64,000 nucleotides of DNA. Origin: a virus. Below, piece by piece: positions 11,247 to 51,944 of the stretch. Below the pieces are notes generated by a model. It saw only the letters and a list, made by a program, of their open reading frames with translations, ran no database searches and was not told where the DNA came from. Numbering within the stretch: the first letter of the stretch is position 1; each line of letters begins with the position of its first letter. The position numbers were made by a program, and so were the translations under genes. The DNA lies in IMG/VR virus record IMGVR_UViG_3300035211_000097, positions 31,703 to 95,702 of that record; one strand, given 5' to 3'.

Positions 11247-12029
11247 TTGGGAACTGATGTTTTAGGTATAAACATTCTTAATGCTATAGACGCTCTCTCG
11301 TCTCCGAATAAATTAGTTCGTGCTGAGTTGATGAAAGCTCTGGGTAATGCTATAGAGGATTATTATTATCCATTACTTCCAGTTAGTATAACAGGACACG
11401 TAATAGATTATCCCGGAAGTTCAGCCCCGACTGGGTATTTAAAATGTGATGGATCATCGGTAAGCAGAACAACATATGCTACATTATTTTCTGTGATAGG
11501 GACTACTTTTGGTTCCGGGGACGGCTCTACTACATTTAATCTGCCGAATTTAACTGTTCCTTTATCAAGGTTATCACATGTCAGGGTAGAAAAAAATGCA
11601 GCACAAACAGTGGCTAATACTGCGGAAAAACTTATATATGGTTCTACTATTTATGATGTATACAGCGAATGGGATTCTACAAATAATCGCTTTGTGGCAT
11701 CTCAAGATGGATATTATATGTTTACATCCATGGTACAGAGTCAAAATTATTCAGAAACTACCGGCGATTATATGCACATGGAAATATATATAAATGGAAC
11801 AAAAGCAGTTCGTATGAACAAGCATGCTGTTCAATATGGGGGTACTCGTTACTGGGCATTTATCGGGGCGACTCCCTTATTTATGAATAAGGATGACTAT
11901 GCAGAAAATTGGTGGTTCGGCACAGGTTTGGGTGCGATGAATATTAGTGCTACTGGGGAGCATAATTATTTTACGATTGATCAGCAGGTGTCCGCAGATC
12001 CTAATTTGACACGTATAATTAAAACATAA
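11247..12029 (+). CDS. Tail-collar-domain fibre protein with C-terminal beta-sandwich (C1q-like)
   Basis: APTGYLKCDGSSVSRTTYATLFSVIGTTFGSGDGSTTFNLPNL is the phage tail collar motif; FVASQDGYYMF is C1q-like. Confidence 0.8.
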   Translation: MGTDVLGINILNAIDALSSPNKLVRAELMKALGNAIEDYYYPLLPVSITGHVIDYPGSSAPTGYLKCDGSSVSRTTYATLFSVIGTTFGSGDGSTTFNLPNLTVPLSRLSHVRVEKNAAQTVANTAEKLIYGSTIYDVYSEWDSTNNRFVASQDGYYMFTSMVQSQNYSETTGDYMHMEIYINGTKAVRMNKHAVQYGGTRYWAFIGATPLFMNKDDYAENWWFGTGLGAMNISATGEHNYFTIDQQVSADPNLTRIIKT

Positions 12030-12038
12030 GAGGGGAAG

Positions 12039-13763
12039 ATGAACGTTTTAGAAAAGAGTTGGCTTTTTGAAGTCGTAGATAGAAAGACAAACTTGATACA
12101 GGAATCTTTTACTCTGGTACTCCCTCCGAAAGCTGTTACTGTAAAGGAAGGGCAACGTGTCAGTATCACAAAGACTTTTGGTGAACCACACATAGACGAT
12201 TATGGGGCTGATAATATCCAGTTGACTATAAAAGCAGAGTCTGGTACAGCGAATAAATTACCGACATTTAAGACTTCAGGGGTGTCCGGGGCTACTTCTT
12301 CGTTTGCTGCCAGTTCACAGACATATACAGGTCGGGAGGCTTTTCAGGAATTTAGAGACAATATAATGCGGTATCGTACAAAGCATAAAAATAAATATGA
12401 CAGATATGATTTGCACGTATACGATTTTGAGGATGAGTCTGCTTATGTTTGTTCTCTACTTGATTTTTCTCTGGAAAGGGTTGCCAGTACTCCATTAAGG
12501 TATCCTTTTACCATTTCTCTTTTTGTAAAGAAATTGATGAATGCTGCGTTGCGATGGAATGCTGCTGACAAAATATTAGGACAAAAATATGGTATTGATG
12601 ATGCCATCAAAGCGATAAACACAGCAATAGAAGCAGTGGACAACGTAGGTAGTTTATTGGACAAAATATCTGTGGAAGCAGTTTTTAACGCTGACAATCC
12701 TGTACTGAGGGCCTTAAACGCTCTGTCCAGTTTGAATGCTGCCGGTCAGCGATTTATCGGGAAAACAAAACAGCTTGGATTACAGCTTGATTTAATAAAA
12801 TCACGAGCGCAGAGTTATGTAGACGATGTGCAGGGAATTGTACAGTTTCCTGCCGATCTCATTAAGTCAGCAGCTGATCTGGCTTTTGAGATTGCTGTGA
12901 TTCCATCAGAAATAGTTGACTCAGCCGTGAACTCTTTTAACGATACGGTAGAGGCTTATGCAGAGATTGTGGATCATTTTAAAAGGATAGGTAATTCTAT
13001 CAGCAGGGCGTATATAGCATCGTTCAATATCGACTCAAAGAAGACAGAGGCTTCCGTGTATCCTACTGATGACGGAGACCCGGCACCACCTACTGAATCT
13101 CAGTTGCTGGGGAATTCTACTTTACTTGCTGGTACTTCTGATCTTGCTTTTTTAACAGATACAGAAACCAGTGAAATTGTTAAGTATAACAGTGAAACTA
13201 CTGTCATTGTCCGGGAGGGTATGACATTAGAGAATATTGCGAATGATGTCGGTTTGGATGACTGGGTAGCCATGGCTTCACATATGGGTATTACAAACAA
13301 TGACTTATATCCCGGAATGGAGCTTACAGTTCCTATCATAATTCCTGAATCTTCTATCGCTCAGAATGAATCTTTCATTTTAAGTGAGGGAGGCATAGAA
13401 GTTTACGGTAGGGATTTACAGGTTGATGATGACGGTGATCTGGTGGTACTGGAAAGTGGTTTATTAGGAACCATAGAAGGTGTTGAGAATGTAAAACTGG
13501 CAATAGATCGCAGATTAAAAACAGGAATAGGTAGCCTTGTCAAAAATACCGCTTATGGATTGTCGATTACAGTCGGTAATGCTGGTACAGTTATGGCTAT
13601 TAAATATTTGAAAATGGCTGTGGAATCTACCATTTTGGCTGATCCACGAATTTCTTCTGTATCAAACATCGATGTGTATACTGAAGGGGACACTTTTAAA
13701 GTGAGCTGTACCTTGCAGTTGACTGCGTTGGTTACTACAGAATATGTAGGGAGTTTAATCTAA
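12039..13763 (+). CDS. Baseplate protein with LysM-like and C-terminal gp25-like wedge domain
   Basis: VREGMTLENIA...LYPGMELTVP (LysM-like); C-terminal ILADPRISSV (gp25/DUF2634-like). Confidence 0.65.
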   Translation: MNVLEKSWLFEVVDRKTNLIQESFTLVLPPKAVTVKEGQRVSITKTFGEPHIDDYGADNIQLTIKAESGTANKLPTFKTSGVSGATSSFAASSQTYTGREAFQEFRDNIMRYRTKHKNKYDRYDLHVYDFEDESAYVCSLLDFSLERVASTPLRYPFTISLFVKKLMNAALRWNAADKILGQKYGIDDAIKAINTAIEAVDNVGSLLDKISVEAVFNADNPVLRALNALSSLNAAGQRFIGKTKQLGLQLDLIKSRAQSYVDDVQGIVQFPADLIKSAADLAFEIAVIPSEIVDSAVNSFNDTVEAYAEIVDHFKRIGNSISRAYIASFNIDSKKTEASVYPTDDGDPAPPTESQLLGNSTLLAGTSDLAFLTDTETSEIVKYNSETTVIVREGMTLENIANDVGLDDWVAMASHMGITNNDLYPGMELTVPIIIPESSIAQNESFILSEGGIEVYGRDLQVDDDGDLVVLESGLLGTIEGVENVKLAIDRRLKTGIGSLVKNTAYGLSITVGNAGTVMAIKYLKMAVESTILADPRISSVSNIDVYTEGDTFKVSCTLQLTALVTTEYVGSLI

Positions 13764-28215: not shown

Positions 28216-28719
28216 ATGAGTGACGAACAGACCAATGAAAAGCAGGAAACCAAAGTAATCCGGTTTACTCTTGCAGGTAAACGGTTCAGAGTTCGTATCG
28301 AAGGTGACTTGGAGCTTACCAGTAAAACCAATGCGGATTTGATAGATCAGTTAAATGTCATTCCGGGACGGCTGGCTTACTGGGGTGCAAAAAGAGCGCA
28401 GGTAGAGTCTGCCGTTGACAAGGCTATGCTTGCGTTTAATCAGTGGATGGCTTCTATGTACTTTAAAGTCAAAGATGCTCTGGTTAAAGAAGGCGAAAAG
28501 AAACCTACTGAAACGCTTATCGGCAATAAAATACTTGTCGATAACGTGGACAAACACATGGAATTGAAAGCGGATATTCGTGAACTGAACGAGTCACTTG
28601 CAATTATCAAAGGTGTGCTTAAGGCATATGAACAGCAGGTGTGGACATTACGTGCAATTGTACAGATGCGAACACATGAACTGGGTTCTATGTCGGACGG
28701 CAATCTCTCGCAGCTATAA
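28216..28719 (+). CDS. Helical recombination mediator (UvsY-like)
   Basis: All-helical/coiled-coil 167 aa next to SSB and RecA. Confidence 0.45.
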   Translation: MSDEQTNEKQETKVIRFTLAGKRFRVRIEGDLELTSKTNADLIDQLNVIPGRLAYWGAKRAQVESAVDKAMLAFNQWMASMYFKVKDALVKEGEKKPTETLIGNKILVDNVDKHMELKADIRELNESLAIIKGVLKAYEQQVWTLRAIVQMRTHELGSMSDGNLSQL

Positions 28720-29822: not shown

Positions 29823-30856
29823 GCAAAAAAGAGCAAGAATCTTTTTTAGCCGGGCTTAATAAAGCCATGGGTAACGATGAGGCATTTATGCGTCTCTCCA
29901 CCCGTGATAAAAAGATAGTTACCGGTCTAAGTACCGGTAGCTATCTGCTTAATTATAAAATGTCGGGTAACCCTTTTGTGGGGTGGCAATATGGAAGGAT
30001 TGCTGAAGTTTACGGCCCTGAACAGTCAGGTAAAACTACGCTGACACTGCATACAATCGCAGAGGCGCATAAGCTGGATGCAATGAAAGGGAATAAACAA
30101 GTGATAAATCCTGTTTTCATTGATGCAGAACACACACTCGATCCAGATTATGCTTCAGCTATTGGTGTAGACATGGACAGGCTTTATGTAATGCAACCAG
30201 ACAGCGGTGAGCAGGCATTGACTGGTGTGGAGAAAGCTATAGACACGGGAAGTAAGCTGATAGTGATTGACTCAGTGGCTTCTCTTACTCCACAGGCAGA
30301 GCTTGACGGGGATATGGGTGATTCTCATATGGGTTTACAGGCCCGGCTTATGGGTCAGGCTCTCAGGAAACTGGTAGGAAAAATCAGTAAAAATCAGGCT
30401 CTGGTTATTTTTATAAATCAGCTTAGGATGAAAATAGGGGTTATGTTTGGTAATCCAGAAACTACTCCGGGCGGTAAAGCTTTGAAGTTTTATTCTTCCT
30501 ACAGGCTGGATGTCCGGGCTGCCCGTGGTGATGCTATAAAAGGCAAACAAAGCCTATCAAATATAAAAGCGGACAAGGATGAAAATGAGATAGGTATAAA
30601 AACGAAAATAAAGATCGTTAAAAATAAATTGTACCCTCCGTATAAAAGAGCGTTGCTTCCTATTATTTACGGACGGGGTTTTGACAAGGAAAAAGACATT
30701 GTGAAATTTTTGGAGTTGTGTGGTTATCTTGATGACGGTTTTGAACTTCCATCTTTAGGTAAGACTTATCAGAAACCGATGTTTAAAAAGGTATTAAGCA
30801 AACCAGAAGTGCAGGGAGATGTCTTAGCATTTTTGAAAAGGGAGTTTGTAGAATGA
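29819..30856 (+). CDS. recA: RecA recombinase
   Basis: GPEQSGKTT, FIDAEH, QARLMGQALRK, FGNPETTPGGKALKFY. Confidence 0.97.
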   Translation: MSKKEQESFLAGLNKAMGNDEAFMRLSTRDKKIVTGLSTGSYLLNYKMSGNPFVGWQYGRIAEVYGPEQSGKTTLTLHTIAEAHKLDAMKGNKQVINPVFIDAEHTLDPDYASAIGVDMDRLYVMQPDSGEQALTGVEKAIDTGSKLIVIDSVASLTPQAELDGDMGDSHMGLQARLMGQALRKLVGKISKNQALVIFINQLRMKIGVMFGNPETTPGGKALKFYSSYRLDVRAARGDAIKGKQSLSNIKADKDENEIGIKTKIKIVKNKLYPPYKRALLPIIYGRGFDKEKDIVKFLELCGYLDDGFELPSLGKTYQKPMFKKVLSKPEVQGDVLAFLKREFVE

Positions 30857-41043: not shown

Positions 41044-41674
41044 CTACCGTACATATCAAAAACCACAGACTGTTGATACTGCCAAGTATACGGATAAACA
41101 GGCGCAGGCGATAACCGGTTTTTATAATCCTGAAGAGGTTGTAGATTTATTTGAGCGGTTTTCTTTTGATAGTAGGCAAATAGCCTTTTGTTTGGAAACT
41201 GCTTTAGGCTATCCCTCTGTTTCAAAGTTGATAAAAAAATTGGGGATATCAGACTGGACATATTATAAGTGGAAGCATGATCCTAAAATAATACAGTGCG
41301 TTGATGCATTGAAAAGAAATCGTAGATTGTTTGAAATGGCTACTTATGACAATTTGCGTAATAGGATGTATCAGTCTCTCCATGAGTTGCTGGATTATAA
41401 AGTTACCTCTGCTAATTTTGCTTCCAAGAAAGAACTTCTGGTGTTTATCCATAAATTATTGGAAGGAGGTCAGCCTACAAAGAAGACATTACGGGTGGCT
41501 TATCAGGAAGAGCCGGTTGATCCTTATGGCGTAGAAAGTGCGACAGAGAGAGATGTCACGCCGTCTGATAGATTGCGTCCTGAGGATATAACCCCGGATA
41601 CTTTAAATGATTTACGAAAACAGTTGGTAGAAAAAATAGACACTCTTGAGGTATTGCATGACGACAGCGTCTGA
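40952..41674 (+). CDS. Putative terminase small subunit (HTH)
   Basis: LIKKLGISDWTYYKWK HTH directly upstream of TerL; start uncertain. Confidence 0.55.
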   Translation: MMGVIVQTSEKSSKQNEKSLQRKSLLKRVNDYRTYQKPQTVDTAKYTDKQAQAITGFYNPEEVVDLFERFSFDSRQIAFCLETALGYPSVSKLIKKLGISDWTYYKWKHDPKIIQCVDALKRNRRLFEMATYDNLRNRMYQSLHELLDYKVTSANFASKKELLVFIHKLLEGGQPTKKTLRVAYQEEPVDPYGVESATERDVTPSDRLRPEDITPDTLNDLRKQLVEKIDTLEVLHDDSV

Positions 41675-43679
41675 CAGGATGTCTGAGTATATTGAGTTGA
41701 AAAAGTTATTGCGCAGGTATGCAGTTGCTGAGAAAAAGATTAGTATTGGCTACCCTGCATATAATTGGGCCTTGAATCATCACCGGAATTCTAAGCTGGA
41801 ACCAATGACTTTTGAAGATGCGTGGTTTTTGCTGCCATTATATAAAAATATAGGAAAGTGGGAGCAGTTTGTAGTTCAGAAGTCTGTTCAGTGTGGGCTC
41901 TCTGAACTTTTTATTATTCAGTCACATTATGAAGCATCTTTGGGAATGTCGGTTATGTATGTTCTGCCTAAATATGAATTGCGTAACCGTTTTGTAAATA
42001 ATCGAATATATAAGCTACATAAGAAAGTACCATGGTATACAAAGCTGGTAGCGCAGGCTGGTACTTCTGTACACAGAACTTCGTTGATGCATTTTGGCAG
42101 GGGTACTTTGATTTATGTCGGGTCGAATGTTGAAGATGAATTTATTGAAGTGCCTGTGGATTCTGCCTATGTTGATGAGAAAGACAGGTGCAATCATAAG
42201 AATTTATTGATGCTGCCCGACAGGTATAGTGCATCCAAGCATAAGTTTCATAGGGAAATTTCTAATCCTACTGTAGATAAGTATGGGATCAATGCCCGAT
42301 ATCGTGAAAGCTCACAGGGTCTGTGGAATTATAAATGTGATCATTGTGGTCATTATTTTACACCTGATTTTTTTAAGCACGTTGTTCGGGAGGTTGGTGA
42401 TCGACAATTTGAAGTTATCGATCCTGCTTTTGATCTTGACTTGTACCGTAAGAAAGACAGAAACACGGATGTTCGGGTGATCTGTGATAAATGTGAAAGG
42501 CCAGTTAATCGTTTAATGAAAGGTGAGTGGGTACATGGCTATCCTACTCGTGAGTGGATAGGTGTTCTGGTTAGTAAAATATTTTCCCGGAATAATACTC
42601 TGTATGATTTGGTAGTAAAATGGGAAGATGGGAAAGATAACGAGTATAAACGGCAGGTGTTTTTTAACAGTGATCTGGGTCTTACTTATTCGGGAGAAGG
42701 TAATCAGATTACTGAAGGAATGATGGCTGAGTGTGCTGTCAGATATTCTTTTCCCGTACGACAGGTAGACTCTGTTGATACTTTGCTGATGGGTGTGGAT
42801 GTGGGTGCTGTTCTTAATTATGTGATTCGCAGGCGGGTTAAGGTTGATACAAAAGTGAAATTACAGTTGATCGAGTTGGGTACAGTTCCCTCTTTTACTG
42901 CTCTGGGAGATGTAATCAGGAAGTGGAAGCCGAAACGGGTTGTGGTAGATGCGCAGCCTGAAATCCATAAGATCATGGAGCTTAAGGCAGATTTTCCCGG
43001 TAAGGTTTTCAGTGCGAGGTTTGCACAGGGTACTACAGCCTTGTCTTATAATAAACAACGGCGTGAGTATTCCATGGATAGGACAGCTTCTCTTGATTAC
43101 GTTCTGGAATACTTTACAACAAAAACATACTTGTTACCGTTGAATTTTCGGGACATTTCGGGAGGTACATATAAGTCGCAGATGATTGCCAGCAGCCGTA
43201 TTTTAGATACAAATGAAGAGCATCCTGAGAAGTCCCGGTTTGACTGGGTACATACTGATCCCGATCATTATTTTTTGGCCGAGGCTTATTTGGTTATGGC
43301 ACATCTTAGTCTACCGATGCATGATCTTTTTGAATTTTTTGAAAAAGAGGTTGAAGTTCAGAGGCAGACAAATGCATATGACAAGGCTAAATTTATAGAC
43401 GCTGCGGATCGGGAAGCTGTAGCAGAAGCAATGCGCATAACTCCACAGGTTTTTTTGGATGGTGTCAGGAGACAGGATGCTGTTAAGAAAGATACCTTGA
43501 AGCCGAGAGTTGATGAAAGGGAAATTCGTCGGGCTATTGATTTCTTTTATAAACAGCAAGGTTATGTGGATTTAAAATTGTGTGCTAATATGTGTCATGA
43601 ACATGAAGACGATGTGAAACGATGGTTGAAAATAAAGGGATTCAGTGAAAGTAACATCAAAGGCCAGTATATCAAGTGA
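41646..43679 (+). CDS. Terminase large subunit (GpA-type)
   Basis: KSVQCGLSE Walker A, VDE, ISNPT, Cys clusters, GVDVG nuclease motif, PDHY. Confidence 0.88.
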   Translation: MRYCMTTASDRMSEYIELKKLLRRYAVAEKKISIGYPAYNWALNHHRNSKLEPMTFEDAWFLLPLYKNIGKWEQFVVQKSVQCGLSELFIIQSHYEASLGMSVMYVLPKYELRNRFVNNRIYKLHKKVPWYTKLVAQAGTSVHRTSLMHFGRGTLIYVGSNVEDEFIEVPVDSAYVDEKDRCNHKNLLMLPDRYSASKHKFHREISNPTVDKYGINARYRESSQGLWNYKCDHCGHYFTPDFFKHVVREVGDRQFEVIDPAFDLDLYRKKDRNTDVRVICDKCERPVNRLMKGEWVHGYPTREWIGVLVSKIFSRNNTLYDLVVKWEDGKDNEYKRQVFFNSDLGLTYSGEGNQITEGMMAECAVRYSFPVRQVDSVDTLLMGVDVGAVLNYVIRRRVKVDTKVKLQLIELGTVPSFTALGDVIRKWKPKRVVVDAQPEIHKIMELKADFPGKVFSARFAQGTTALSYNKQRREYSMDRTASLDYVLEYFTTKTYLLPLNFRDISGGTYKSQMIASSRILDTNEEHPEKSRFDWVHTDPDHYFLAEAYLVMAHLSLPMHDLFEFFEKEVEVQRQTNAYDKAKFIDAADREAVAEAMRITPQVFLDGVRRQDAVKKDTLKPRVDEREIRRAIDFFYKQQGYVDLKLCANMCHEHEDDVKRWLKIKGFSESNIKGQYIK

Positions 43680-43977
43680 TCTTCTCTTTTGTTCTTACTG
43701 TGAATCGTGGCTCAAGAAGTCGGCTTTCAGTAACGGGTCACCTATCTGCAAAGTTTGTACCGATGTTTATTTACAAGTGGACAGTTATCGGGAACCTACT
43801 TATTCTACTATTTTAAATGGATATGTAAATTTATTTTTGGCTATCAGGGATCGGGCCATACTGGATCATGCGCAGGAAGATTTTGACAGTTATTGGATAT
43901 GGCAATTCTCTGATGTTTGGGATTCTCTCAGTTCTCTCTTCCGGTCTGACAATTCATATAAAATTTCTGATATTTAA
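43645..43977 (+). CDS. Hypothetical zinc-finger protein
   Basis: CxxC...CxxC; start uncertain. Confidence 0.4.
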   Translation: MKVTSKASISSDLLFCSYCESWLKKSAFSNGSPICKVCTDVYLQVDSYREPTYSTILNGYVNLFLAIRDRAILDHAQEDFDSYWIWQFSDVWDSLSSLFRSDNSYKISDI

Positions 43978-44048
43978 ATTTAGGGACGATAAAGTAACAA
44001 TTTGACATATAACTTGACTCATGTTATAATTAAGTATAAGTAAGGGAA
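43976..44048 (+). promoter_or_regulatory. Early sigma70 promoter, copy A (perfect consensus)
   Basis: TTGACA (44002-44007)-17 nt-TATAAT (44025-44030); the 73-bp block is repeated at 45613 with 4 mismatches. Confidence 0.9.
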
Positions 44049-44213
44049 GGATATTTGACAGAGCAGGGAAAGGGAGTTCAGGGAACTGACTAAAGGATTG
44101 TCGGACTGAATGGATCGAGTACTGAAGTAGAGAAGGATGCATACCCTCCTATCTGATAACTTGATTGAAGTTATGAGACGGGAGAAACCCGAAGCAATAT
44201 TTTGGAGGTAGGC
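44037..44213 (+). ncRNA. Structured 5' leader RNA, copy A
   Basis: Shares GGAGTTCAGGGAACTGACTA, TGTCGGACTGAATGGAT and GAAGGATGCATACCCTCCT, plus two similarly placed hairpins, with copy B. Confidence 0.55.
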
Positions 44214-44215
44214 AA

Positions 44216-44401
44216 ATGCATAAAGGAAGACTTGAGATGGCCAGAGAATATGGACGGAAAGCTTTTAAAGCAGGGAAGAAAAGAGTACCGGCATTGGACA
44301 ATAATTTGCCGAGATTTATGAAATATGATAATGCTAAATACGCCGTGGCTCTTCTGAAAGAATGGTTTACTGGATGGGATGAAATGAACATGGCTGATTA
44401 A
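44216..44401 (+). CDS. Early hypothetical protein
   Basis: SD GGAGG; first gene after promoter A. Confidence 0.65.
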   Translation: MHKGRLEMAREYGRKAFKAGKKRVPALDNNLPRFMKYDNAKYAVALLKEWFTGWDEMNMAD

Positions 44402-44463
44402 AGACTTTGTGGGTAGTTCTACGGAGCTACTTGCTGACTCTTTATACTTTGGAGGTATGTAAG

Positions 44464-44775
44464 ATGAAGAAAGACTTTTTTAAGGATTTCAGGTACGAAG
44501 ACAAAATTACAGACGTTGTCTCTGTTAAGATGAATACGGTTGTGGTTATGGTTGATGATCTTGAGATTACAGTACAGCTGGTTCCGGGTGGCGTAGGCCA
44601 TTACGATATCTGGGTTTCGTTCGGAAAGGGATATATCAGAAAGACTTATTACAGAAGAACGATGACGGAAGCCGATAGAGAATGGTTTATGGAATTCCGG
44701 GAAGTGTCTCTGGAAATACGTGATGAGAAAGCGACACATTTTTTCGATGACATTGAAAAACGGTTGTATGGGTAA
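44464..44775 (+). CDS. Early hypothetical protein
   Basis: SD TTGGAGGT, ATG 44464. Confidence 0.65.
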   Translation: MKKDFFKDFRYEDKITDVVSVKMNTVVVMVDDLEITVQLVPGGVGHYDIWVSFGKGYIRKTYYRRTMTEADREWFMEFREVSLEIRDEKATHFFDDIEKRLYG

Positions 44776-44833
44776 AGGCTTTGTGGACAGCTCTTCGGAG
44801 CTGCCTGCTGATTCTTTACTTGGAGGTATTGAT

Positions 44834-45049
44834 ATGCAAACACAAACGGAATTTATAAATGACACTGGTTCCTCTGTGATTATGACAGTCACAGAGCGTG
44901 GAAAATACAGTACCCTTACTGTTGAGCATGAAGATTATGACGGACAGGGTGGGCCAGTACACGAGCAGGACGTACCTGCTGACGAGATAGATAAAGTCTG
45001 TCGGGAGTGGGTACGGGATTTGCTCGGCTTAAAGTTCAGACCAGTGTAA
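44834..45049 (+). CDS. Early hypothetical protein
   Basis: SD TTGGAGGT, ATG 44834. Confidence 0.6.
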   Translation: MQTQTEFINDTGSSVIMTVTERGKYSTLTVEHEDYDGQGGPVHEQDVPADEIDKVCREWVRDLLGLKFRPV

Positions 45050-45126
45050 AAGTTTTGTGGACAGTCCTACGGGGCTGCCTGCTGAATCTTTATACTTTAT
45101 ATTATAAGAGATTGAGGAGGTCAGCG

Positions 45127-45357
45127 GTGATAGAATATTGGGATAATATTGATATAAAACTTATAAAAAAACCTAATATGTATGGATTGATATTTGAGGT
45201 AAACTCATTGGCTTATGATGAATTGGAGTTATACATCGGGGAGCTTATTGAGTTTGAAGGTCAAAAATATATGGTTAAAACAGTGAATCATCTTTCTTCA
45301 GAAAAAAGAGAAAGCAGGGTCTATATCGGTTCAAAACTTATATCTAAATCTCTTTGA
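45127..45357 (+). CDS. Early hypothetical protein
   Basis: SD GAGGAGG, GTG 45127. Confidence 0.55.
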   Translation: MIEYWDNIDIKLIKKPNMYGLIFEVNSLAYDELELYIGELIEFEGQKYMVKTVNHLSSEKRESRVYIGSKLISKSL

Positions 45358-45461
45358 ACGGAACACGGTATTTGAGTGTGGATCACTGCGAATATCTGGA
45401 TTAAAGATTTTGTGGGTCGTCTATTGGACGGCTTGCTGAACCTTTAACGATGGAGGGTTTT

Positions 45462-45581
45462 ATGATTGGTGTATGCATTGGTGTAGTATTTGTGGGATTG
45501 TTGATAACAGCTTTCCTACTGTACCGGAAAGATTTAAAAGAGTGTCAGGTGTATTTTGGAATCTACAAGTATAGAAAGTAA
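45462..45581 (+). CDS. 39-aa single-TM membrane peptide (not in ORF track)
   Basis: SD GGAGG; MIGVCIGVVFVGLLITAFLLYRKDLK... Confidence 0.55.
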   Translation: MIGVCIGVVFVGLLITAFLLYRKDLKECQVYFGIYKYRK

Positions 45582-45590
45582 GAAGTAAAA

Positions 45591-45612
45591 TGCAGGGCGT
45601 TCCTGCCCTGCA
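45591..45612. terminator. GC-rich hairpin before promoter B
   Basis: TGCAGGGC-GTTCCT-GCCCTGCA flanked by A-tracts. Confidence 0.45.
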
Positions 45613-45685
45613 AAATTTAGGGACGATAAAGTAACAATTTTACATATAACTTGACTCATGTCATAATAGAGTATAAGTAAGGGAA
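45613..45685 (+). promoter_or_regulatory. Early sigma70 promoter, copy B
   Basis: TTTACA-17 nt-CATAAT within a near-identical duplicate of 43976-44048. Confidence 0.8.
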
Positions 45686-45873
45686 AGGGAGATCAAACCT
45701 GAAGTACTTAAGGTCTTTGAAAGATGAAGGGGGAAGGAGTTCAGGGAACTGACTATGATGTCGGACTGAATGGATAAACCCCGGATAAGCGAAGGATGCA
45801 TACCCTCCTTTCAGAGAGTTTAGAAATGAACTTTCCGATGGGAGTAATCCCAAAAAAACCTTGGAGGTATGCT
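45674..45873 (+). ncRNA. Structured 5' leader RNA, copy B
   Basis: Same conserved blocks as copy A; TGGGA-GTAA-TCCCA GNRA hairpin before the SD. Confidence 0.55.
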
Positions 45874-46770
45874 ATGAAAGCTACTAAATCAAATCCCTTT
45901 TTTACAGTATCAAGAGAAGAACTTTACAGGAAGAACACTACAAACAAACCGGAAAACGGAAAGATGATCTATACAGGTTATGACAGCCTTTACCGGAAAG
46001 ACAACGGCAGACAGCTGGCAGTAGTTAGCAAACAGTATGAGGTTATTACTCATCGAGAAGCCGTTGACACAGCACACCACGCTCTGCGTGATGTGGGGAT
46101 AATGAACTTTAAATTTGAAAGTGAAGTATCCTATAGTGGTGCGCAGCTGTTTCACAAGATACAGTTTCCTGAATACAAGTTTAATCTTGATGACAACAAT
46201 GGTAAGTCACTGAGAGGTACCGCACTGGACTCTGGCAGTAAACTGGGTGAAGGTGCTGTTCCGCAGATCGTGGTCAAGAACACTTACGATGGAACATCCA
46301 GCTTGAATTTTACTTATGGTATTTTCAGATTGGTCTGTTCAAACGGCATGATGGTCGGCACACAGGTTGACAAGATTGCAGTTACCCATTCAGGTGAAAT
46401 TGATTTTGAGAGTATTGGTGATCGTATCATTGAAAATCTGGAAGCAACAATCGAAGGTGCTAAACGCAGTTACCAAAAGCTGAATGCTGAAGACGGTTTT
46501 GATCTGTTCAAACAGATCATGATTACAGATGCATGGCTCAGTAACCGCTACAATAACCTTGTGTTTGATATGCTTGAAAAACAGGTAACTGTAGAGTGGG
46601 ATAAAGACGAAGAAACCGACAAGCTCGTTCCTGTCGATGCTCGTCTTAAACAAGAGTTTTCAAAGTATGCACTGTGGTGTGTATTAACTGAAGTGGTAAC
46701 ACACAGAATCCACTCGGCACAGCACAGGGACAGGTTAAGTCGAAAGATTGCAAAGTCTTTCACTGCCTGA
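45874..46770 (+). CDS. DUF932-family protein
   Basis: VVSKQYEVI, NTYDGTSS and FRLVCSNGM motifs. Confidence 0.8.
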   Translation: MKATKSNPFFTVSREELYRKNTTNKPENGKMIYTGYDSLYRKDNGRQLAVVSKQYEVITHREAVDTAHHALRDVGIMNFKFESEVSYSGAQLFHKIQFPEYKFNLDDNNGKSLRGTALDSGSKLGEGAVPQIVVKNTYDGTSSLNFTYGIFRLVCSNGMMVGTQVDKIAVTHSGEIDFESIGDRIIENLEATIEGAKRSYQKLNAEDGFDLFKQIMITDAWLSNRYNNLVFDMLEKQVTVEWDKDEETDKLVPVDARLKQEFSKYALWCVLTEVVTHRIHSAQHRDRLSRKIAKSFTA

Positions 46771-46844
46771 TGGCTTTGTGGGCGGTTCCACGGAACCGCT
46801 TGCTGAACTCATCAGGGTTCTAAAAATACTTGGAGGTATGCCAG

Positions 46845-47153
46845 ATGAAAATTGAGAAAGGAACAATATTGAACTTTAGAGGATCATGGGGATCGGGAAT
46901 CGGATATCTTGTAATTCAGAAAGAAGGCGAGAGAGAAGAGATATCGGTACCATGTGAAAACGGTGCTACAGTCAGAGCGTTATCCAATTACGTAGACTGT
47001 ATTACTACTGGTCACGGCGTGGATGTGGACAAGATAAAAGGCATGGAAATATTCTACGCAATGGAAGGCTGGGGAACAATGGCCGGGCTCGTTCCTACCG
47101 AACATGCAACTCCTGAGATGTGGGATTTGTATGAGTCTGGTTACGAAGACTAA
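46845..47153 (+). CDS. Early hypothetical protein
   Basis: SD TTGGAGGT, ATG 46845. Confidence 0.65.
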   Translation: MKIEKGTILNFRGSWGSGIGYLVIQKEGEREEISVPCENGATVRALSNYVDCITTGHGVDVDKIKGMEIFYAMEGWGTMAGLVPTEHATPEMWDLYESGYED

Positions 47154-47215
47154 GGGCTTTGTGGGTGGTTCCACTGGAACCACTTGCTGAACTTTTAGTT
47201 CAGGAGGTATGACAG

Positions 47216-47545
47216 ATGGTACTTTTAACACAGGAAATTCTTAAAAGGATTCCGAGCATTGACGAGGATCGTGCGGTTGAACCGGACAGTGAAAAAAGAA
47301 TGGCGCATGCCAAGCTATTCACTCCCGATGCAAACTGGACATGGTACTTGATTGCTTATGATCCTGAAGAGGAACTGGCGTACGGTCTGGTAAAAGGATT
47401 CGAGGTAGAATTCGGTTACATCAGTATGGCAGAGATCAAGAATCTCAGGGGGCCGATGGGTCTGGCTGTTGAGCGTGACAGGAGCTTTACCAAGATGAAC
47501 GTGAAAGAGCTGTACGACAAAATCAAAGCTGGAAAGCATGTGTAG
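47216..47545 (+). CDS. DUF2958-family protein
   Basis: KLFTPDANWTWY...GFEVEFGYIS...VERD motif. Confidence 0.8.
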   Translation: MVLLTQEILKRIPSIDEDRAVEPDSEKRMAHAKLFTPDANWTWYLIAYDPEEELAYGLVKGFEVEFGYISMAEIKNLRGPMGLAVERDRSFTKMNVKELYDKIKAGKHV

Positions 47546-47631
47546 CTTAAAACCTTGGGGATGAGATTACGGTCTCATTCCTTGGGTGGTAAGACACTGA
47601 AAAATCTGAAATAACCTTGGAGGTATGTGAG

Positions 47632-47976
47632 ATGGGAATATTAAGAACAAATGATTGGGAGATGTTCAGGTATTCGTTATTCTGCGATATTCTTGAACAG
47701 CTCGGTGGATCAGAACCTACAGACGAAGATATTTGGGAACAGATGCGAGAGTCTGTAGAGGTACCATTGGCTGAGAATTACTATTATGATGAGGTGTTAG
47801 GCCGTATCAAAGCAAAGCTTGATGAGGAAGGCATTGAGTCAAGTTATTATGTTAATTCTCGGGATACTCATTTACACATCTATATTGATGGTTGTTCAGA
47901 AGAAGTTACCAGCATGTCAGAATTTGATGATATGTATGAACGGGCTAAAGCTGAACTTGACGATGTTGATGAGTAG
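47632..47976 (+). CDS. Early acidic hypothetical protein
   Basis: SD TTGGAGGT, ATG 47632. Confidence 0.65.
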   Translation: MGILRTNDWEMFRYSLFCDILEQLGGSEPTDEDIWEQMRESVEVPLAENYYYDEVLGRIKAKLDEEGIESSYYVNSRDTHLHIYIDGCSEEVTSMSEFDDMYERAKAELDDVDE

Positions 47977-48034
47977 GTTTTCTGAGCTGTCTATAGGGCA
48001 GCTTGGTGAATTTTAATGCTTGGAGGTATGTGAT

Positions 48035-48409
48035 ATGAAGAAAAGAAAAACAGCTGATGTGTATTATCAGACACCGCTACAATGGAAAGATTTACTGGGG
48101 GTATCAGTACGACAGCGTGAGAATCTTCAGTATGTGGTCAAGCTAAATGAAGTTGAACAGAAAGGCCGTTATAAGTTTGTCAGGTCGATAGATTATAGCT
48201 GGCTACCACAGACTAAACAAGAGGCTGATACTTTGGATGAAGTTTATCGGTTGATGCAGGGCGAGGTCTGGTCACCTAATGGGGAGGCCAGAGAGTTGAT
48301 TGAGTCTTTGAGACTTCACCATACATCTATGAGTGTAGGTGATGTGGTGAAACTTGCAGATGGTACTTTCTGGATACTTAATAGTATCGGCTGGGGGCGG
48401 TTGAGCTGA
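48035..48409 (+). CDS. YodL-like protein
   Basis: HTSMSVGDVV motif. Confidence 0.6.
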   Translation: MKKRKTADVYYQTPLQWKDLLGVSVRQRENLQYVVKLNEVEQKGRYKFVRSIDYSWLPQTKQEADTLDEVYRLMQGEVWSPNGEARELIESLRLHHTSMSVGDVVKLADGTFWILNSIGWGRLS

Positions 48410-48483
48410 AGCATAGGCTTTGTGGGTAGCCTATTGGGTTACCTGCTGAACCTTATGGTTCGAGAAAATTTTGGAGGTATGCC

Positions 48484-48864
48484 ATGGAATTAACAAGCAA
48501 GAATGTAGATGCTTTATTCAAAAAGTGTTTATATACCGAAGGTGAAGTTGTTGAAGGTCATATTCCGGTAGAAGGGGTTATAACAAGGGTCGGGTTTCAT
48601 CCGGGGCGTATTGAGGAAAACAAAGTTGAAATTGAAAACTTGTTAAATCAGCTTCCTGACAGTTTCAGTAAAAGCATGGGAGGTGGACATTCATTTCTTC
48701 AGGCATGTGTGGATAACAAAGGTAGACAGTGGGGTGAACATCGGAACATTGATCAGTTGCTGATGTTGGGTCTGGCAATAGGCAAGGCACACTACTGTAT
48801 AGAAAACCGGCAGGCATGGAGAGTCATGCCGGGAGGAATGCCTTATTTCTACATCGATGATTAA
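48484..48864 (+). CDS. Conserved phage hypothetical protein
   Basis: GGGHSFLQAC.D..G.QW and PGGMPY motifs; SD. Confidence 0.65.
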   Translation: MELTSKNVDALFKKCLYTEGEVVEGHIPVEGVITRVGFHPGRIEENKVEIENLLNQLPDSFSKSMGGGHSFLQACVDNKGRQWGEHRNIDQLLMLGLAIGKAHYCIENRQAWRVMPGGMPYFYIDD

Positions 48865-48938
48865 CGGCTTTGTGGGTGGCCTGCTGGGTCACCTGCTGAA
48901 CTGTTAACCAGTTCAAAAAAATCTATGGAGGTATGCCT

Positions 48939-49139
48939 ATGAGTGAAAAGGTGAAACCCACAATTTACATTGAGGAAGGTGAAAACGTATTCGGTATCTT
49001 TGGAAGGTTCCAGAGAGAGGCCCGGAAAAACGGCTGGTCGCAGGAAGATATTGACGAGGTTCTGGATAAGGCGAAAGCCGGGGACTATGAAAATGCTGTT
49101 GCTGTGATCAAGAAAAATGTGGAGGTCGAAGAGTTATGA
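48939..49139 (+). CDS. Early hypothetical protein
   Basis: SD GGAGG; N.F.I.G...ARKNGW...GDY motif. Confidence 0.6.
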   Translation: MSEKVKPTIYIEEGENVFGIFGRFQREARKNGWSQEDIDEVLDKAKAGDYENAVAVIKKNVEVEEL

Positions 49140-49447
49140 GAGTAGATATTGATTTCACAGATGTCGGGTACGGTATCCCGGATGTCGGGGAAACGTTCAG
49201 ACGTAAACGTGGTTACACGCTGTACTTACGTGTCGATACTCGGTACATAGAGGATTTGGAATTTGAAGACAAAAGAGGTCGGGGTGGTAAGGTCAGCATG
49301 GCAAAAACATTCGATATGGATCGCTATTTTTTTGGAGTACGGGTAGATACAGGTATTATCCATTACTTCAAAAAAGAGGACGCTTACAATTGTGTTGTAA
49401 TGCCTACCAAAGTGGTCATGGATATGGAGGCTATCGATGAAGGGTGA
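49136..49447 (+). CDS. Hypothetical protein
   Basis: ATGA overlap with the upstream gene. Confidence 0.55.
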   Translation: MRVDIDFTDVGYGIPDVGETFRRKRGYTLYLRVDTRYIEDLEFEDKRGRGGKVSMAKTFDMDRYFFGVRVDTGIIHYFKKEDAYNCVVMPTKVVMDMEAIDEG

Positions 49448-49583
49448 CACACTTGAAAGAATTCAGGCAGACCTGAAGGGCCTGAAAGAAAAAGTAAGGT
49501 TGGGCCAGCTGACTTATGAGGCTTACTGTATTCAAAAGGCGAAGGTCAAAAAACGACTGAGGGAATTTCAGGGTAAAGCCTAA
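49437..49583 (+). CDS. 48-aa hypothetical protein (not in ORF track)
   Basis: SD GGAGG; MKGDTLERIQ...; its TAA begins the hairpin copy at 49581. Confidence 0.55.
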   Translation: MKGDTLERIQADLKGLKEKVRLGQLTYEAYCIQKAKVKKRLREFQGKA

Positions 49584-49654
49584 AGGCTTTGTGGGCTATC
49601 TGCTGGGTGGCCTGCTGAATCTTTATGGTTCAATATTAAATCTTGGAGGTATGT

Positions 49655-50221
49655 ATGAGTTTAAATTGGAACAGTGAAAACTGTGTGGGATGGGAAGAAC
49701 TGCAAGAGAGTGCAAAGGAACGGAGCATTACTGATGCGATTATCTGGGCTTCTTGTGTGGTTGGTATTCCTGAGATCAAGGCAGATAACATAGTGGAATT
49801 CCACTATCGGAGTAATCTGTATGATGCGATTGCCGGGGCAAGAATGCATGACTTATTGCCTATGTCGAGCGATAATAAAAGTGATTGGGCTGTACCACGT
49901 CCGATTAAGGTAGATGATTTGCAAAAGAGGATCGGATTGATGACCAATGCGCCTGAGTTTACTACTCCACAGTTCTTTAAGAACTTACGGAAGATGTATG
50001 ATCGGGAAGTTGAGAAAAGTGATTTTCATCTCCGTGGTATACTTCGGGGAGACGAGCAGGCTGAGTTTCATAAGAAACAGGGTTGTCCCGGATGCTTTTA
50101 TGCTGATGAGAAAGCGATAGCGAGAAAGATGCCTTGTTGTACTTTCGGGCAAACGTGTACCAGTCCCCCACAATTTGACAAGGATGGAAAGTGTCTCACA
50201 AGGAAAGCGAGGGGCGTATGA
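49655..50221 (+). CDS. Hypothetical protein with Cys-rich C-terminus
   Basis: SD TTGGAGGT, ATG 49655. Confidence 0.6.
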   Translation: MSLNWNSENCVGWEELQESAKERSITDAIIWASCVVGIPEIKADNIVEFHYRSNLYDAIAGARMHDLLPMSSDNKSDWAVPRPIKVDDLQKRIGLMTNAPEFTTPQFFKNLRKMYDREVEKSDFHLRGILRGDEQAEFHKKQGCPGCFYADEKAIARKMPCCTFGQTCTSPPQFDKDGKCLTRKARGV

Positions 50222-50385
50222 CTATCAAGGAAAAATGCCAGAGGGCATGTATGGCGATTGAGTACGTGAAAGAGTGGTTGGAGATTGTTGAAGAAGATGC
50301 TGGTAAAGACTTACTGCGTGTTGATGATGATAAAATGCTTGCAAATATTGAGGCTTATTTGACAAGCAGACCAACTACGAAGTAA
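50218..50385 (+). CDS. Hypothetical protein
   Basis: ATGA coupling. Confidence 0.5.
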   Translation: MTIKEKCQRACMAIEYVKEWLEIVEEDAGKDLLRVDDDKMLANIEAYLTSRPTTK

Positions 50386-50446
50386 CAGCTTTGTGGGCTA
50401 TCCTCTGGGTAGCCTGCTGATCTGTTAAAGATCAATGGAGGTGTTT

Positions 50447-50719
50447 ATGGGATTATTGCAACATGCAATAGAAATGGAGACGGGACACCTGAGAAGTATA
50501 GGTGTCCAGCAATATGGATTACACACAATGCTTATGTATGAATGTGTGACTTGCGGTTCTACGTTTCCTGCGATATTTTCTGAAGACATGAAGGTATCAG
50601 GATCAGAACACATGGATGCTGAGGATATTGTGAAGTTGGCCCCGGAAATGGTGCCGAGTTGTAACGGTGAAAAAGTAAAGCAGTGTCCATGGTGCAGAAA
50701 AAAAGCAGCGATAAATTAG
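50447..50719 (+). CDS. Hypothetical zinc-ribbon protein
   Basis: CxxC...CPWC; SD GGAGG. Confidence 0.55.
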   Translation: MGLLQHAIEMETGHLRSIGVQQYGLHTMLMYECVTCGSTFPAIFSEDMKVSGSEHMDAEDIVKLAPEMVPSCNGEKVKQCPWCRKKAAIN

Positions 50720-50747
50720 TATCGTTATTATACATTCTGCCGTATAG
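50717..50747 (+). promoter_or_regulatory. Putative phage-sigma promoter, copy 2
   Basis: TAGTATCG-N13-TGCCGTATAG. Confidence 0.65.
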
Positions 50748-50810
50748 TATAGTGAGTAATTCGATGTAAACTTTATCCGGGTCAGCCTGAGAAAGAGTTC
50801 ACTTTCATCT

Positions 50811-51052
50811 TAACCTGCCCTATGGTTCGGATCAAAGATTTGCATATCTCCAAAAAGGCACAGAAAGTGTATTCAGGTTTAAGGGCAGGTTATTTATTTT
50901 GGTTAATATCCGGGAGTTGGAGTAGGTGATGAGGGTTCGTCTTATACAGTATTGATCCCTACGGGGATGACGTAGACAGGCAGCCACCTTTTATGCTTGA
51001 CGCTTCCCTTGGTGTCTTCGCAGTGATGGGAAGATGCCCCTCCCTCCCGGAT
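50811..51052 (+). ncRNA. Candidate structured ncRNA(s)
   Basis: ORF-free; closing helices TAACCTGCCCT/AGGGCAGGTTA and ATCCGGGAG/CTCCCGGAT; internal cUACGg hairpin. Confidence 0.5.
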
Positions 51053-51072
51053 TCATATATAAAGAGGTGTAC

Positions 51073-51261
51073 ATGGAAATTGGTGACTATAAGATTGAGA
51101 AGATCAGGGATCACGGAATGTCAGTGATACAGAAAGGTGTTACAAAATATACAGCGTTTTGTGATCTGAAATTAAAAAGTAGAATACTTCGGGACATGGA
51201 TATGTTGCGAAAGTGTATGCATTTTATTTGTGATGAAATAATGGTGGGGGTAAATTCATGA
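51073..51261 (+). CDS. Hypothetical protein
   Basis: SD GAGGT. Confidence 0.5.
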   Translation: MEIGDYKIEKIRDHGMSVIQKGVTKYTAFCDLKLKSRILRDMDMLRKCMHFICDEIMVGVNS

Positions 51262-51944
51262 GTCAAGGTAAAGCATATCACAATAGGAAACCAAAGGTAG
51301 AGAGAAAAGCGAATGATGGTTATTCTACTCCGAGAAGTCTGGTCTGGGAATTACATAAACAATATCCGGGGGTTATAGATTCATGTGATATACTTGAACC
51401 TTGCTGTGGTAGGGATCAGAATATCATGAATGCATTGGGAGATATAGGAATATCCTGTACAGGTTTTGATTTATATTATGGTCAGAACCGGCAGGATATT
51501 TTTGCGTATGATGGCGAACACGATATGATTCTGACTAATGTTCCATTCACAAACTGGGACGATTTTATATTTGCCTGTAAGTCCATAGCAAGAAGGGTTG
51601 TGGTGATAGGCAGGACAAATTATTTCGGTACTTATCAGAGATATGACTCTGGGATATGGAAAGGGTTACGGCAGACACTTGTGTTTAACAGAATGGTTGA
51701 TTATGAAACTCCGGCAAGGAAGGACGGACATTTTCATGTGGGTGGTCTGGTCACGGCGTGGATGGTATTTGATCGGGATTACCGGGGTAAGGCGTATCTG
51801 GATCATGTGGATGTACAGAAGTATGCAACACTGGGCCAGTATCCACGGAAAATATGTAAAGAGTGTGGAAAGAAAATAACAAAAGGTGATTTATGTAAAA
51901 AGTGTGTTATTAAAATACAGGATGTATTTTATGGCCGTGTTTGA
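51258..51944 (+). CDS. DNA adenine methyltransferase-like protein
   Basis: YSTP, ILEPCCG (motif I) and ILTNVPF (motif IV variant). Confidence 0.7.
   Translation: MSQGKAYHNRKPKVERKANDGYSTPRSLVWELHKQYPGVIDSCDILEPCCGRDQNIMNALGDIGISCTGFDLYYGQNRQDIFAYDGEHDMILTNVPFTNWDDFIFACKSIARRVVVIGRTNYFGTYQRYDSGIWKGLRQTLVFNRMVDYETPARKDGHFHVGGLVTAWMVFDRDYRGKAYLDHVDVQKYATLGQYPRKICKECGKKITKGDLCKKCVIKIQDVFYGRV

Follow-up and report, generated by a model that had tools for sequence, protein, structure and literature searches.

Intercistronic RNA hairpins processed by RNase III are known from the early mRNAs of phage T7 and of the Bacillus phage SP82, and they are compared here with a family of 11 sense-strand hairpins that separates small, unrelated genes in a 64,000-nt stretch of virus DNA (below, the window), comprising bases 31703-95702 of the 95,702-bp record IMGVR_UViG_3300035211_000097. 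The T7 sites R0.3, R0.5, R1, R1.1 and R1.3, which we take to lie where Dunn and Studier placed them in 1983 and which carry no annotation in the T7 RefSeq record, form a repeated family within one genome and stand between the cistrons of a polycistronic early mRNA, where their cleavage is proven; for altered versions of R1.1 a shift to double or upstream cleavage is reported. The T7 intergenic regions holding these five sites were folded, and in the family drawn from R0.3, R0.5, R1.1 and R1.3 each site has a variable lower stem, the conserved interruption ACUC/UAUGA and, above it, 9-10 bp of upper stem, conserved at the base (AAGGUC...GGCCUU) and variable at the top. Folding of the host-takeover module of phage SPO1 likewise revealed five intergenic hairpins with GGUUGCUAG...AUGGAGCC around a variable 10-11-bp stem, the UAG stop codon of the upstream gene lying inside the lower stem in three of the five, with AAAGGAGAGGU next. 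These SPO1 hairpins (7113-7212, 11776-11852, 12193-12273, 12380-12527 and 12697-12794 of locus L187, none annotated in the RefSeq record) probably correspond to the mapped Bs-RNase III sites of SP82 early mRNA (Panganiban and Whiteley 1983; Mitra and Bechhofer 1994). A single cut on the downstream side is described for T7 substrates that contain an internal bubble and for SP82 substrates that contain internal loops (PMC1935012), and a passage of PMC7509114, citing Hue et al. 1995, has a ribosome-binding site stabilise SP82 mRNA.

A covarying hairpin family within one gene array

Eleven hairpins of about 46-54 nt were found at 44399-50431 of the window, all on the + strand and each where the first-pass annotation of this DNA had reported it, and they are absent elsewhere in the complete 95.7-kb genome. 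The copies are numbered e1 to e11 and the genes of the array g0 to g16; z-scores were calculated against dinucleotide shuffles, and R1 denotes a covariance model built from the 11 copies.

44399-44444, + strand: hairpin e1; the g0 stop codon (44399-44401) opens the lower stem; 6 + 2 + 11 bp; UACG loop; -18.5 kcal/mol, z -4.8; R1 score 67.2 bits; GGAGG at 44451
44770-44821, + strand: hairpin e2; stop codon 44773-44775 within the lower stem; UUCG loop; A.C mismatch at upper-stem position 5; z -3.7; GGAGG at 44822
45043-45096, + strand: hairpin e3; stop codon 45047-45049 within the lower stem; A.C mismatch at upper-stem position 5; z -5.0; GGAGG at 45116
45400-45447, + strand: hairpin e4; TAA 45402-45404 at the usual register; z -4.6; GGAGG at 45452
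46766-46816, + strand: hairpin e5; TGA stop codon of the DUF932 gene (46768-46770) in an 8-bp lower stem; -28.2 kcal/mol, z -6.3; GGAGG at 46832
47149-47197, + strand: hairpin e6; stop codon 47151-47153 in the lower stem; 12-bp upper stem; z -4.1; GGAGG at 47203
47547-47593, + strand: variant hairpin at the g7/g8 junction, directly 3' of the g7 stop codon (47543-47545); z -4.7; unmatched by R1
47973-48015, + strand: hairpin e7, the most diverged; basal G-C replaced by C-G; A-U at position 4; z -4.5; GGAGG at 48022
48412-48457, + strand: hairpin e8; stop codon 48407-48409 just 5' of the lower stem; z -4.0; GGAGG at 48473
48861-48907, + strand: hairpin e9; stop codon 48862-48864 in the lower stem; z -4.9; GGAGG at 48927
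49581-49626, + strand: hairpin e10; stop codon 49581-49583 opens the lower stem; z -4.0; GGAGG at 49645
50383-50428, + strand: hairpin e11; stop codon 50383-50385 opens the lower stem; z -5.3; GGAGG at 50437

The upstream gene's stop codon is placed exactly 6 nt 5' of the YUUU that begins the interruption in eight copies; the stop codon of e7 (47974-47976) is nearer to the interruption by 2 nt than in other copies, and the TAA of e4 closes an 18-codon frame only, g3 itself ending at 45357, 44 nt earlier. The strong Shine-Dalgarno sequence claimed to follow each element was found as GGAGG 0-19 nt 3' of every hairpin. The hairpin at 47547-47593, the twelfth of the array, has the same geometry as the 11 copies with a different sequence: a U.U mismatch closes its 11-bp upper stem, below which come 4 bp, a 2x2 loop and 3 bp.

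All 11 copies share a fold of a 6-9-bp lower stem, an interruption, an upper stem of 11 bp (exactly so in nine copies, 12 bp in e6) and a 3-4-nt loop, with energies of -17 to -28 kcal/mol and z-scores of -3.7 to -6.3. Folding and hand counts reproduced most of the first-pass description, i.e. the two stems, the YUUU/UGAH interruption, the 11-bp GUGG...YUGC upper stem, the swap from G-C to C-G in the copy at 47974 and the cUACGg/cUUCGg loops. The interruption (YUUU/UGAN), in which YUUU faces UGA and one or two further bases on the 3' side, had been described as a 4x4 internal loop; the loop is present, but not fully open, since U11-A43 and U12.G42 can pair within it in all copies, flanked by a U.U mismatch and a C/U-N mismatch, and it is better regarded as a weak helix.

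In a hand-registered count, upper-stem position 1 was G-C in ten copies and C-G in one, positions 2 and 3 were U.G and G.U in all 11, position 4 was G-C, G.U or A-U, and positions 6-10 each showed three to five pair types. Position 5 was G-C in nine copies and an A.C mismatch in those at 44772 and 45044. Compensation is also seen in the lower stem (e.g. UAAAGG/UCUUUA versus UAACGG/CUGUUA), where e9 carries a double change from A-U to C-G. The covariation test, applied to the fixed-register part of the alignment (16 pairs), found 92.6% of cells paired versus 83.5% with shuffled partners, a value that none of 500 shuffles reached. Changes on both sides were present in eight of the 16 pairs, and pairing fell to 32-61% when the partner was slid by one to three columns. 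The mean fold energy was -20.8 kcal/mol for the sense and -10.9 kcal/mol for the antisense strand, a gap of about 10 kcal/mol, and each stem contains two to five G.U pairs. In combination, the pairing, the covariation and the sense-strand stability reveal that the hairpin is a selected RNA structure of the + strand, as first proposed from its G.U pairs and loops.

Point by point, this structure matches the T7 and SPO1 plan in lower stem, interruption, upper stem and position, except for the letters; the analogy drawn in the first-pass annotation is thereby strengthened, the design being shared by the folded T7 sites R0.3, R0.5, R1.1 and R1.3 and the five SPO1 hairpins. The T7 sites are, like the present ones, a repeated intercistronic family with a variable lower stem, a conserved interruption, a conserved upper-stem base and a variable top, and 'UGA' occurs on the 3' side of the interruption in both. 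They differ in carrying ACUC/UAUGA and AAGGUC..GGCCUU instead of YUUU/UGAN and GUGGG..CYUGC, in having no invariant tandem wobble, and in their proven cleavage, whereas the present hairpins are known from sequence and folding alone. The SPO1 hairpins also follow small early genes of no known function, hold the stop codon in the lower stem, vary in a 10-11-bp upper stem above a conserved asymmetric interruption, and are followed immediately by a strong polypurine Shine-Dalgarno sequence; their conserved letters are again different (GGUUGCUAG...AUGGAGCC). With eleven or twelve sites, the array also differs from SP82 early mRNA, in which Panganiban and Whiteley reportedly mapped three sites in 1983.

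Within the genome the family is confined to this array. The pattern TTTGTGG-N12-24-YTGCTGA matched ten of the 11 copies and nothing in 100 dinucleotide shuffles, the only copy missed being e7 (47974), with its C-G stem base; an extra match at 29975-30006 lies in coding sequence and forms no hairpin. Run over the whole 95.7-kb genome, R1 recovered the 11 copies at 56-67 bits and no others, the next match, at 14.9 bits, being coding sequence at genome positions 28580-28627 (L121 8680-8727). Both stray matches are probably due to chance. A blastn search of the sequence against the phage collection gave zero matches, and pattern scans of IMG/VR gave isolated chance matches and no array. In 185,579 prokaryote genomes the pattern occurred as 88 single matches and no array; all 88 are chance matches, the best reaching 27 bits with R1 and the two best lying within a sugar-kinase-like coding motif. 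A search of the whole genome against Rfam 15, self-cleaving ribozymes included, returned no gathering-level match, and the array gave chance-level matches only (E above 0.2). The family had been called unrecognised, which this search bears out, and an accompanying suggestion of Mg2+ self-cleavage found no support there.

The copies are mutually 52-85% identical, and neighbouring copies are more similar than expected for a random order (73.8% vs 67.9%, permutation p = 0.001). This fits local duplication, gene conversion or insertion beside an existing copy, and does not in itself show cassette exchange; the cassette shuffling suggested at the outset has, at the DNA level, this similarity as its sole hint.

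Several described element types were considered and rejected. Integron attC sites are also structured repeats that bound promoterless cassettes of unrelated genes, with a plan of stem, unpaired centre, stem and variable tip; here, however, the R''/R' cores (RYYYAAC / GTTRRRY) are missing in most copies, no integrase (PF00589) match was obtained, and the wobble pairs favour RNA. Bacterial REP/BIME elements are repeated imperfect palindromes located just 3' of stop codons, and REP stabilises the upstream mRNA, but the present family has no GTAG head, no Y1 (RAYT) transposase (no PF01797 match) and, in place of near-identical palindromes, an interruption with covarying stems. An intrinsic terminator is contradicted by the UGA and lower-stem 3' arm, and no U-tract, that follow the stems (a terminator scan flagged e7 only, through AUUUU inside its own lower stem). 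The analogy to T4-type PeSL fell away, as no promoter-like site (>=9/12 positions) accompanies any element. Stoperator-like double-stranded DNA operators are argued against by the covarying palindromic interior and the strand-specific wobble pairs, CsrA sites by the absence of GGA from every loop, a K-turn or loop E by the absence of tandem G.A pairs, and a target of a trans-acting ribozyme or guide by the absence of any + strand complement of the conserved motifs outside the elements.

A competing downstream hairpin and a distant counterpart

Six copies (e5, e6, e8, e9, e10, e11) offer a second pairing, in which the conserved UGAAC, joined by the lower-stem 3' arm, binds a GUUCA-like segment downstream. 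The resulting alternative 3' hairpin begins at the U or the G of UGA in these six of the 11 copies and outfolds 97.7-100% of shuffles; a weaker version is present in e3.

46805-46820, + strand: alternative 3' hairpin of e5 (GAACUC/GGGUUC); -6.2 kcal/mol; 1% of shuffles as good
47188-47202, + strand: alternative 3' hairpin of e6 (UGAAC/GUUCA), adjoining the Shine-Dalgarno sequence; -3.3 kcal/mol; 0/300 shuffles as good
48447-48462, + strand: alternative 3' hairpin of e8; -7.0 kcal/mol; 0.3% of shuffles as good
48897-48915, + strand: alternative 3' hairpin of e9 (UGAACUG/CAGUUCA); -7.4 kcal/mol; 0.3% of shuffles as good
49616-49632, + strand: alternative 3' hairpin of e10; -5.0 kcal/mol; 2.3% of shuffles as good
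50418-50434, + strand: alternative 3' hairpin of e11 (UGAUC/GAUCA); -6.2 kcal/mol; 0/300 shuffles as good

In e5 the alternative hairpin and the lower stem are mutually exclusive, as the lower-stem 3' arm is common to both, and e11 displays a compensating change, A-to-U in the conserved motif being matched by U-to-A in its downstream partner.

A counterpart was observed in an uncultivated relative, IMGVR_UViG_3300037796_000222 (L119), the terminase of which is 44% identical to that of the present phage and the guanine-plus-cytosine (GC) content of which is 56% (vs 41%). Downstream of its terminase the layout is the same, with two promoters followed by homologous leaders, hairpins after stop codons and strong UUGGAGGUGUG ribosome-binding sites. 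In four hairpins of this early region, located 3' of stop codons, the upper stem again measures 11 bp, its base reading G-C, U.G (or C-G), G.U, G.U (or G-C), G-C; the loops have 3-4 nt, and there is a 1x1 mismatch with a short lower helix. Immediately 3' of the upper stem begins a competing hairpin, GGAGC...GCUCC, and the stop-codon register is loose (10-16 nt). Stem base, stem length and two-hairpin logic are thus shared with L119 despite a wide evolutionary separation, whereas the interruption has other letters; further hairpin types are present in L119 as well. Across about 60 loci of terminase relatives R1 found no copy, the only partial (upper-stem) matches being those in L119. By tblastn, just two array genes had counterparts in the arrays of relatives, g9 (in L119) and g6 (in L180); reading of the L119 region also suggested a DUF932-like gene, unconfirmed by tblastn. 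A phage contig with a g9 homologue (L135, 500-3300) has an intergenic unit of its own, a GC-rich hairpin followed by GUGCGGUGCAUGUUCGCACC and then AAGGAGUC, which occurs at least seven times ahead of small genes.

Presumed early transcription units of the phage

The virus record is complete, with direct terminal repeats, and comes from a wetland metagenome assembly. All genes of the window lie on the + strand. The products of the genome include PolA, a DnaB-like helicase and SbcCD-like proteins as well as a tail sheath, a portal and a gpA-type large terminase (41646-43679); a lytic, myovirus-like phage is proposed. The large terminase is only about 22% identical to those of Herelleviridae (SPO1-, K- and P100-like phages), and the terminases of uncultivated relatives reach at most 67% identity to it. 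The wetland lineage is uncultivated and only remotely SPO1-like. Several relatives have large terminases of about 1,040 aa with Hint/LAGLIDADG domains (inteins), and some terminase homologues are filed under Patescibacteria or Peregrinibacteria metagenome-assembled genomes, which could be a host clue or a binning artefact.

The array starts about 700 nt 3' of the terminase gene and is divided into two units, the promoters of which are the only strong + strand promoters within 43600-51300; a scan of the same interval found no U-tract terminator on the + strand inside the array.

44002-44030, + strand: early promoter P1, TTGACA-17-TATAAT with TG, 12/12 consensus positions; opens unit 1 (g0, e1-e4, g1-g4)
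44031-44215, + strand: conserved leader RNA, copy 1; repeat families D4, D18 and D19; aligns with both L119 leaders
45639-45667, + strand: early promoter P2, 10/12 consensus positions, with TG; opens unit 2 (g5-g16, e5-e11)
45668-45873, + strand: conserved leader RNA, copy 2; repeat families D4, D18 and D19; aligns with both L119 leaders

The P2 region is a 95%-identical repeat of the P1 region (family D4). Promoter and leader of about 180-250 nt occur together twice in the window (43976-44215 and 45613-45873) and twice in L119 (12862-13152 and 15672-15947). The leader blocks kept in both phages are a 5' polypurine GGGAAGGGAG, GGUCUUUGACAGAG and an anti-Shine-Dalgarno-like ACCCUCC/CACCUCC; no matching family was found for the leader in Rfam, and it could be a 5' stabiliser or an antitermination RNA. 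Between the two units a GC-rich hairpin at 45591-45612, with an A-run on its 5' and a T-run on its 3' side, was scored as a terminator on the - strand only, though the genes are all on the + strand. The sigma-70-type promoters and the gene content suggest that the array genes are early.

Hairpins are present at the junctions g0/g1, g1/g2, g2/g3, g3/g4, g5/g6, g6/g7, g8/g9, g9/g10, g10/g11, g13/g14 and g15/g16, and are missing within g11-g13 and within g14-g15, which share one module each. The notion that every gene is a self-contained module does not hold for these two groups. That the genes between the elements are unrelated was supported by a mutual comparison of the 17 array proteins, which detected no similarity. 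Most belong to no known family, the exceptions being g5 (DUF932, 45874-46770), g7 (DUF2958, 47216-47545), both inside the early array, and g10 (PHROG 26039). The DUF932 and DUF2958 families are frequent in the leading regions of conjugative plasmids, near anti-restriction genes, and their presence is compatible with an anti-defence role of the array. The g16 product (50447-50719), which has a Cys-rich motif, matched the restriction-alleviation protein Lar at a level short of the Pfam cut-off (E 0.0028). Immediately 3' of the last hairpin module, a stretch of about 350 nt (50720-51075) has no convincing open reading frame and contains promoter-like and hairpin-forming segments.

Proposed processing by RNase III and rival explanations

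The structure, covariation, strand specificity and position of the hairpins, and the likeness of their design to the T7 and SPO1 signals, are direct observations. By analogy with those signals we propose, with confidence that is evenly balanced, that the hairpins serve as intercistronic mRNA processing and stability signals, each cut once by host RNase III on the 3' side of the interruption; the identity of the enzyme, its point of cleavage and the stabilising roles are presumed from the analogy. Two long early transcripts, each from a strong sigma-70-type promoter, would carry the hairpins as cis-acting elements, each an irregular helix of about two turns made up of the 6-9-bp lower stem, the weak YUUU/UGAN interruption and the 11-bp upper stem. 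Host RNase III would bind this helix and make a single cut on the 3' side of the interruption, at or just 5' of the conserved UGA. The upstream message would be left ending in the stable 11-bp hairpin, which would block 3' exonucleases, and a small protective hairpin could re-form from the freed UGAAC...GUUCA at the new 5' end of the downstream message; alternatively, this end would start directly at the strong GGAGGU site, where a ribosome would protect it. Each long transcript would in this way yield separately stable messages of one to three genes each.

Features expected of RNase III signals are present, namely a two-turn hairpin with an internal-loop interruption in all 11 copies, an intercistronic position on the sense strand of a polycistronic transcript, and conserved letters at the interruption combined with a variable, compensating distal stem. 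A search of the phage proteins for RNase III, a double-stranded RNA-binding domain (dsRBD), Cas6, Csy4 and RegB found none encoded; to our knowledge, RNase III is near-universal in bacteria.

Several observations weigh against the proposal. No RNA runs containing the sequence were found, and the conserved letters are unlike those of the T7 and SPO1 sites, so that the enzyme is not inferable from the sequence. We know of no RNase III determinant that corresponds to the invariant tandem U.G/G.U, which could point to another protein instead. In the same region, other relatives have intergenic hairpins of unrelated sequence ahead of strong Shine-Dalgarno sequences; because of this, a generic hairpin may be enough, and the uniform family may reflect local duplication rather than recognition. 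Furthermore, e1, e2, e4 and e7 have no alternative 3' hairpin; these are the copies in which the Shine-Dalgarno sequence starts 0-6 nt after the hairpin.

It is possible, if rather unlikely, that the hairpins are never cut and act as 3'-exonuclease barriers and cistron insulators, like REP in bacterial operons, having become uniform through local duplication or gene conversion. The great stability of the hairpins, the resemblance between neighbouring copies and the occurrence of unrelated stable hairpins at similar positions in relatives would all be accounted for. A mere barrier has no need of an invariant interruption or of invariant wobble pairs, yet these are kept across two phages with terminases 44% identical and GC contents 15 points apart; it also leaves the conserved alternative hairpin starting at UGA unexplained, and the genome has no Y1 transposase.

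The gathering of the invariant letters on one face of the helix, with the remainder covarying freely, would suit a docking site, formed by the interruption and the tandem U.G/G.U, for a dedicated RNA-binding protein or a non-RNase III endoribonuclease, of phage or host, that controls the translation or decay of all early messages jointly. Such a binder, which we consider unlikely, could be hidden among the array proteins, most of which are without a known family. No recognisable RNA-binding or RNase domain was found among the families tested, however, g9 is the sole array protein with a tblastn match in the hairpin-bearing L119, and the 47547 variant keeps the geometry but not the letters.

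The fixed distance between stop codon and YUUU in eight copies, and the alternative hairpin that excludes the lower stem in six copies and has a counterpart in L119, raise the question of a role for translation. One version, in our view distinctly improbable, is that a terminating ribosome chooses between the cleavable full hairpin and the alternative 3' hairpin, a logic that would be kept with different letters in two distant phages; if true, this two-state device would tie the processing and stability of each downstream early message to translation of the preceding gene. In another version, a ribosome terminating at the stop codon in the lower stem would open that stem, the alternative hairpin would form and the fate of the downstream cistron would change. 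This is very doubtful, as the Shine-Dalgarno sequence is left uncovered by the alternative hairpin in most copies, so that there is no evident output, four copies have no such hairpin, the register in L119 is loose, and the same features are compatible with refolding after cleavage. Finally, DNA-level recombination sites (attC-like or PeSL-like) that move cassettes, with the RNA structure a by-product, would explain why repeats that supply their own stop codon and resemble their neighbours bound unrelated genes, and why gene content is almost wholly different from that of relatives, but are highly improbable given G.U pairs that leave the complementary strand 10 kcal/mol weaker, no GTTRRRY/RYYYAAC cores, a genome without a tyrosine recombinase or Y1 transposase, no promoter beside the elements (unlike PeSL) and no array in the prokaryote genomes or IMG/VR.

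Under the proposed processing by RNase III, the hairpins most likely represent an unannotated sequence family of a kind known since T7 and SP82. The combination of strong promoter, hairpin, strong ribosome-binding site and built-in stop codon offers a compact natural design for running many unrelated genes at set levels from a single transcript; the practical gain is modest, such elements having been familiar since T7. Through the invariant tandem wobble and the stop-codon register, the features read by bacterial RNase III, or by another factor, become open to precise and inexpensive in vitro tests, and a well-defined covarying RNA family is added to the small set of phage intercistronic processing signals.

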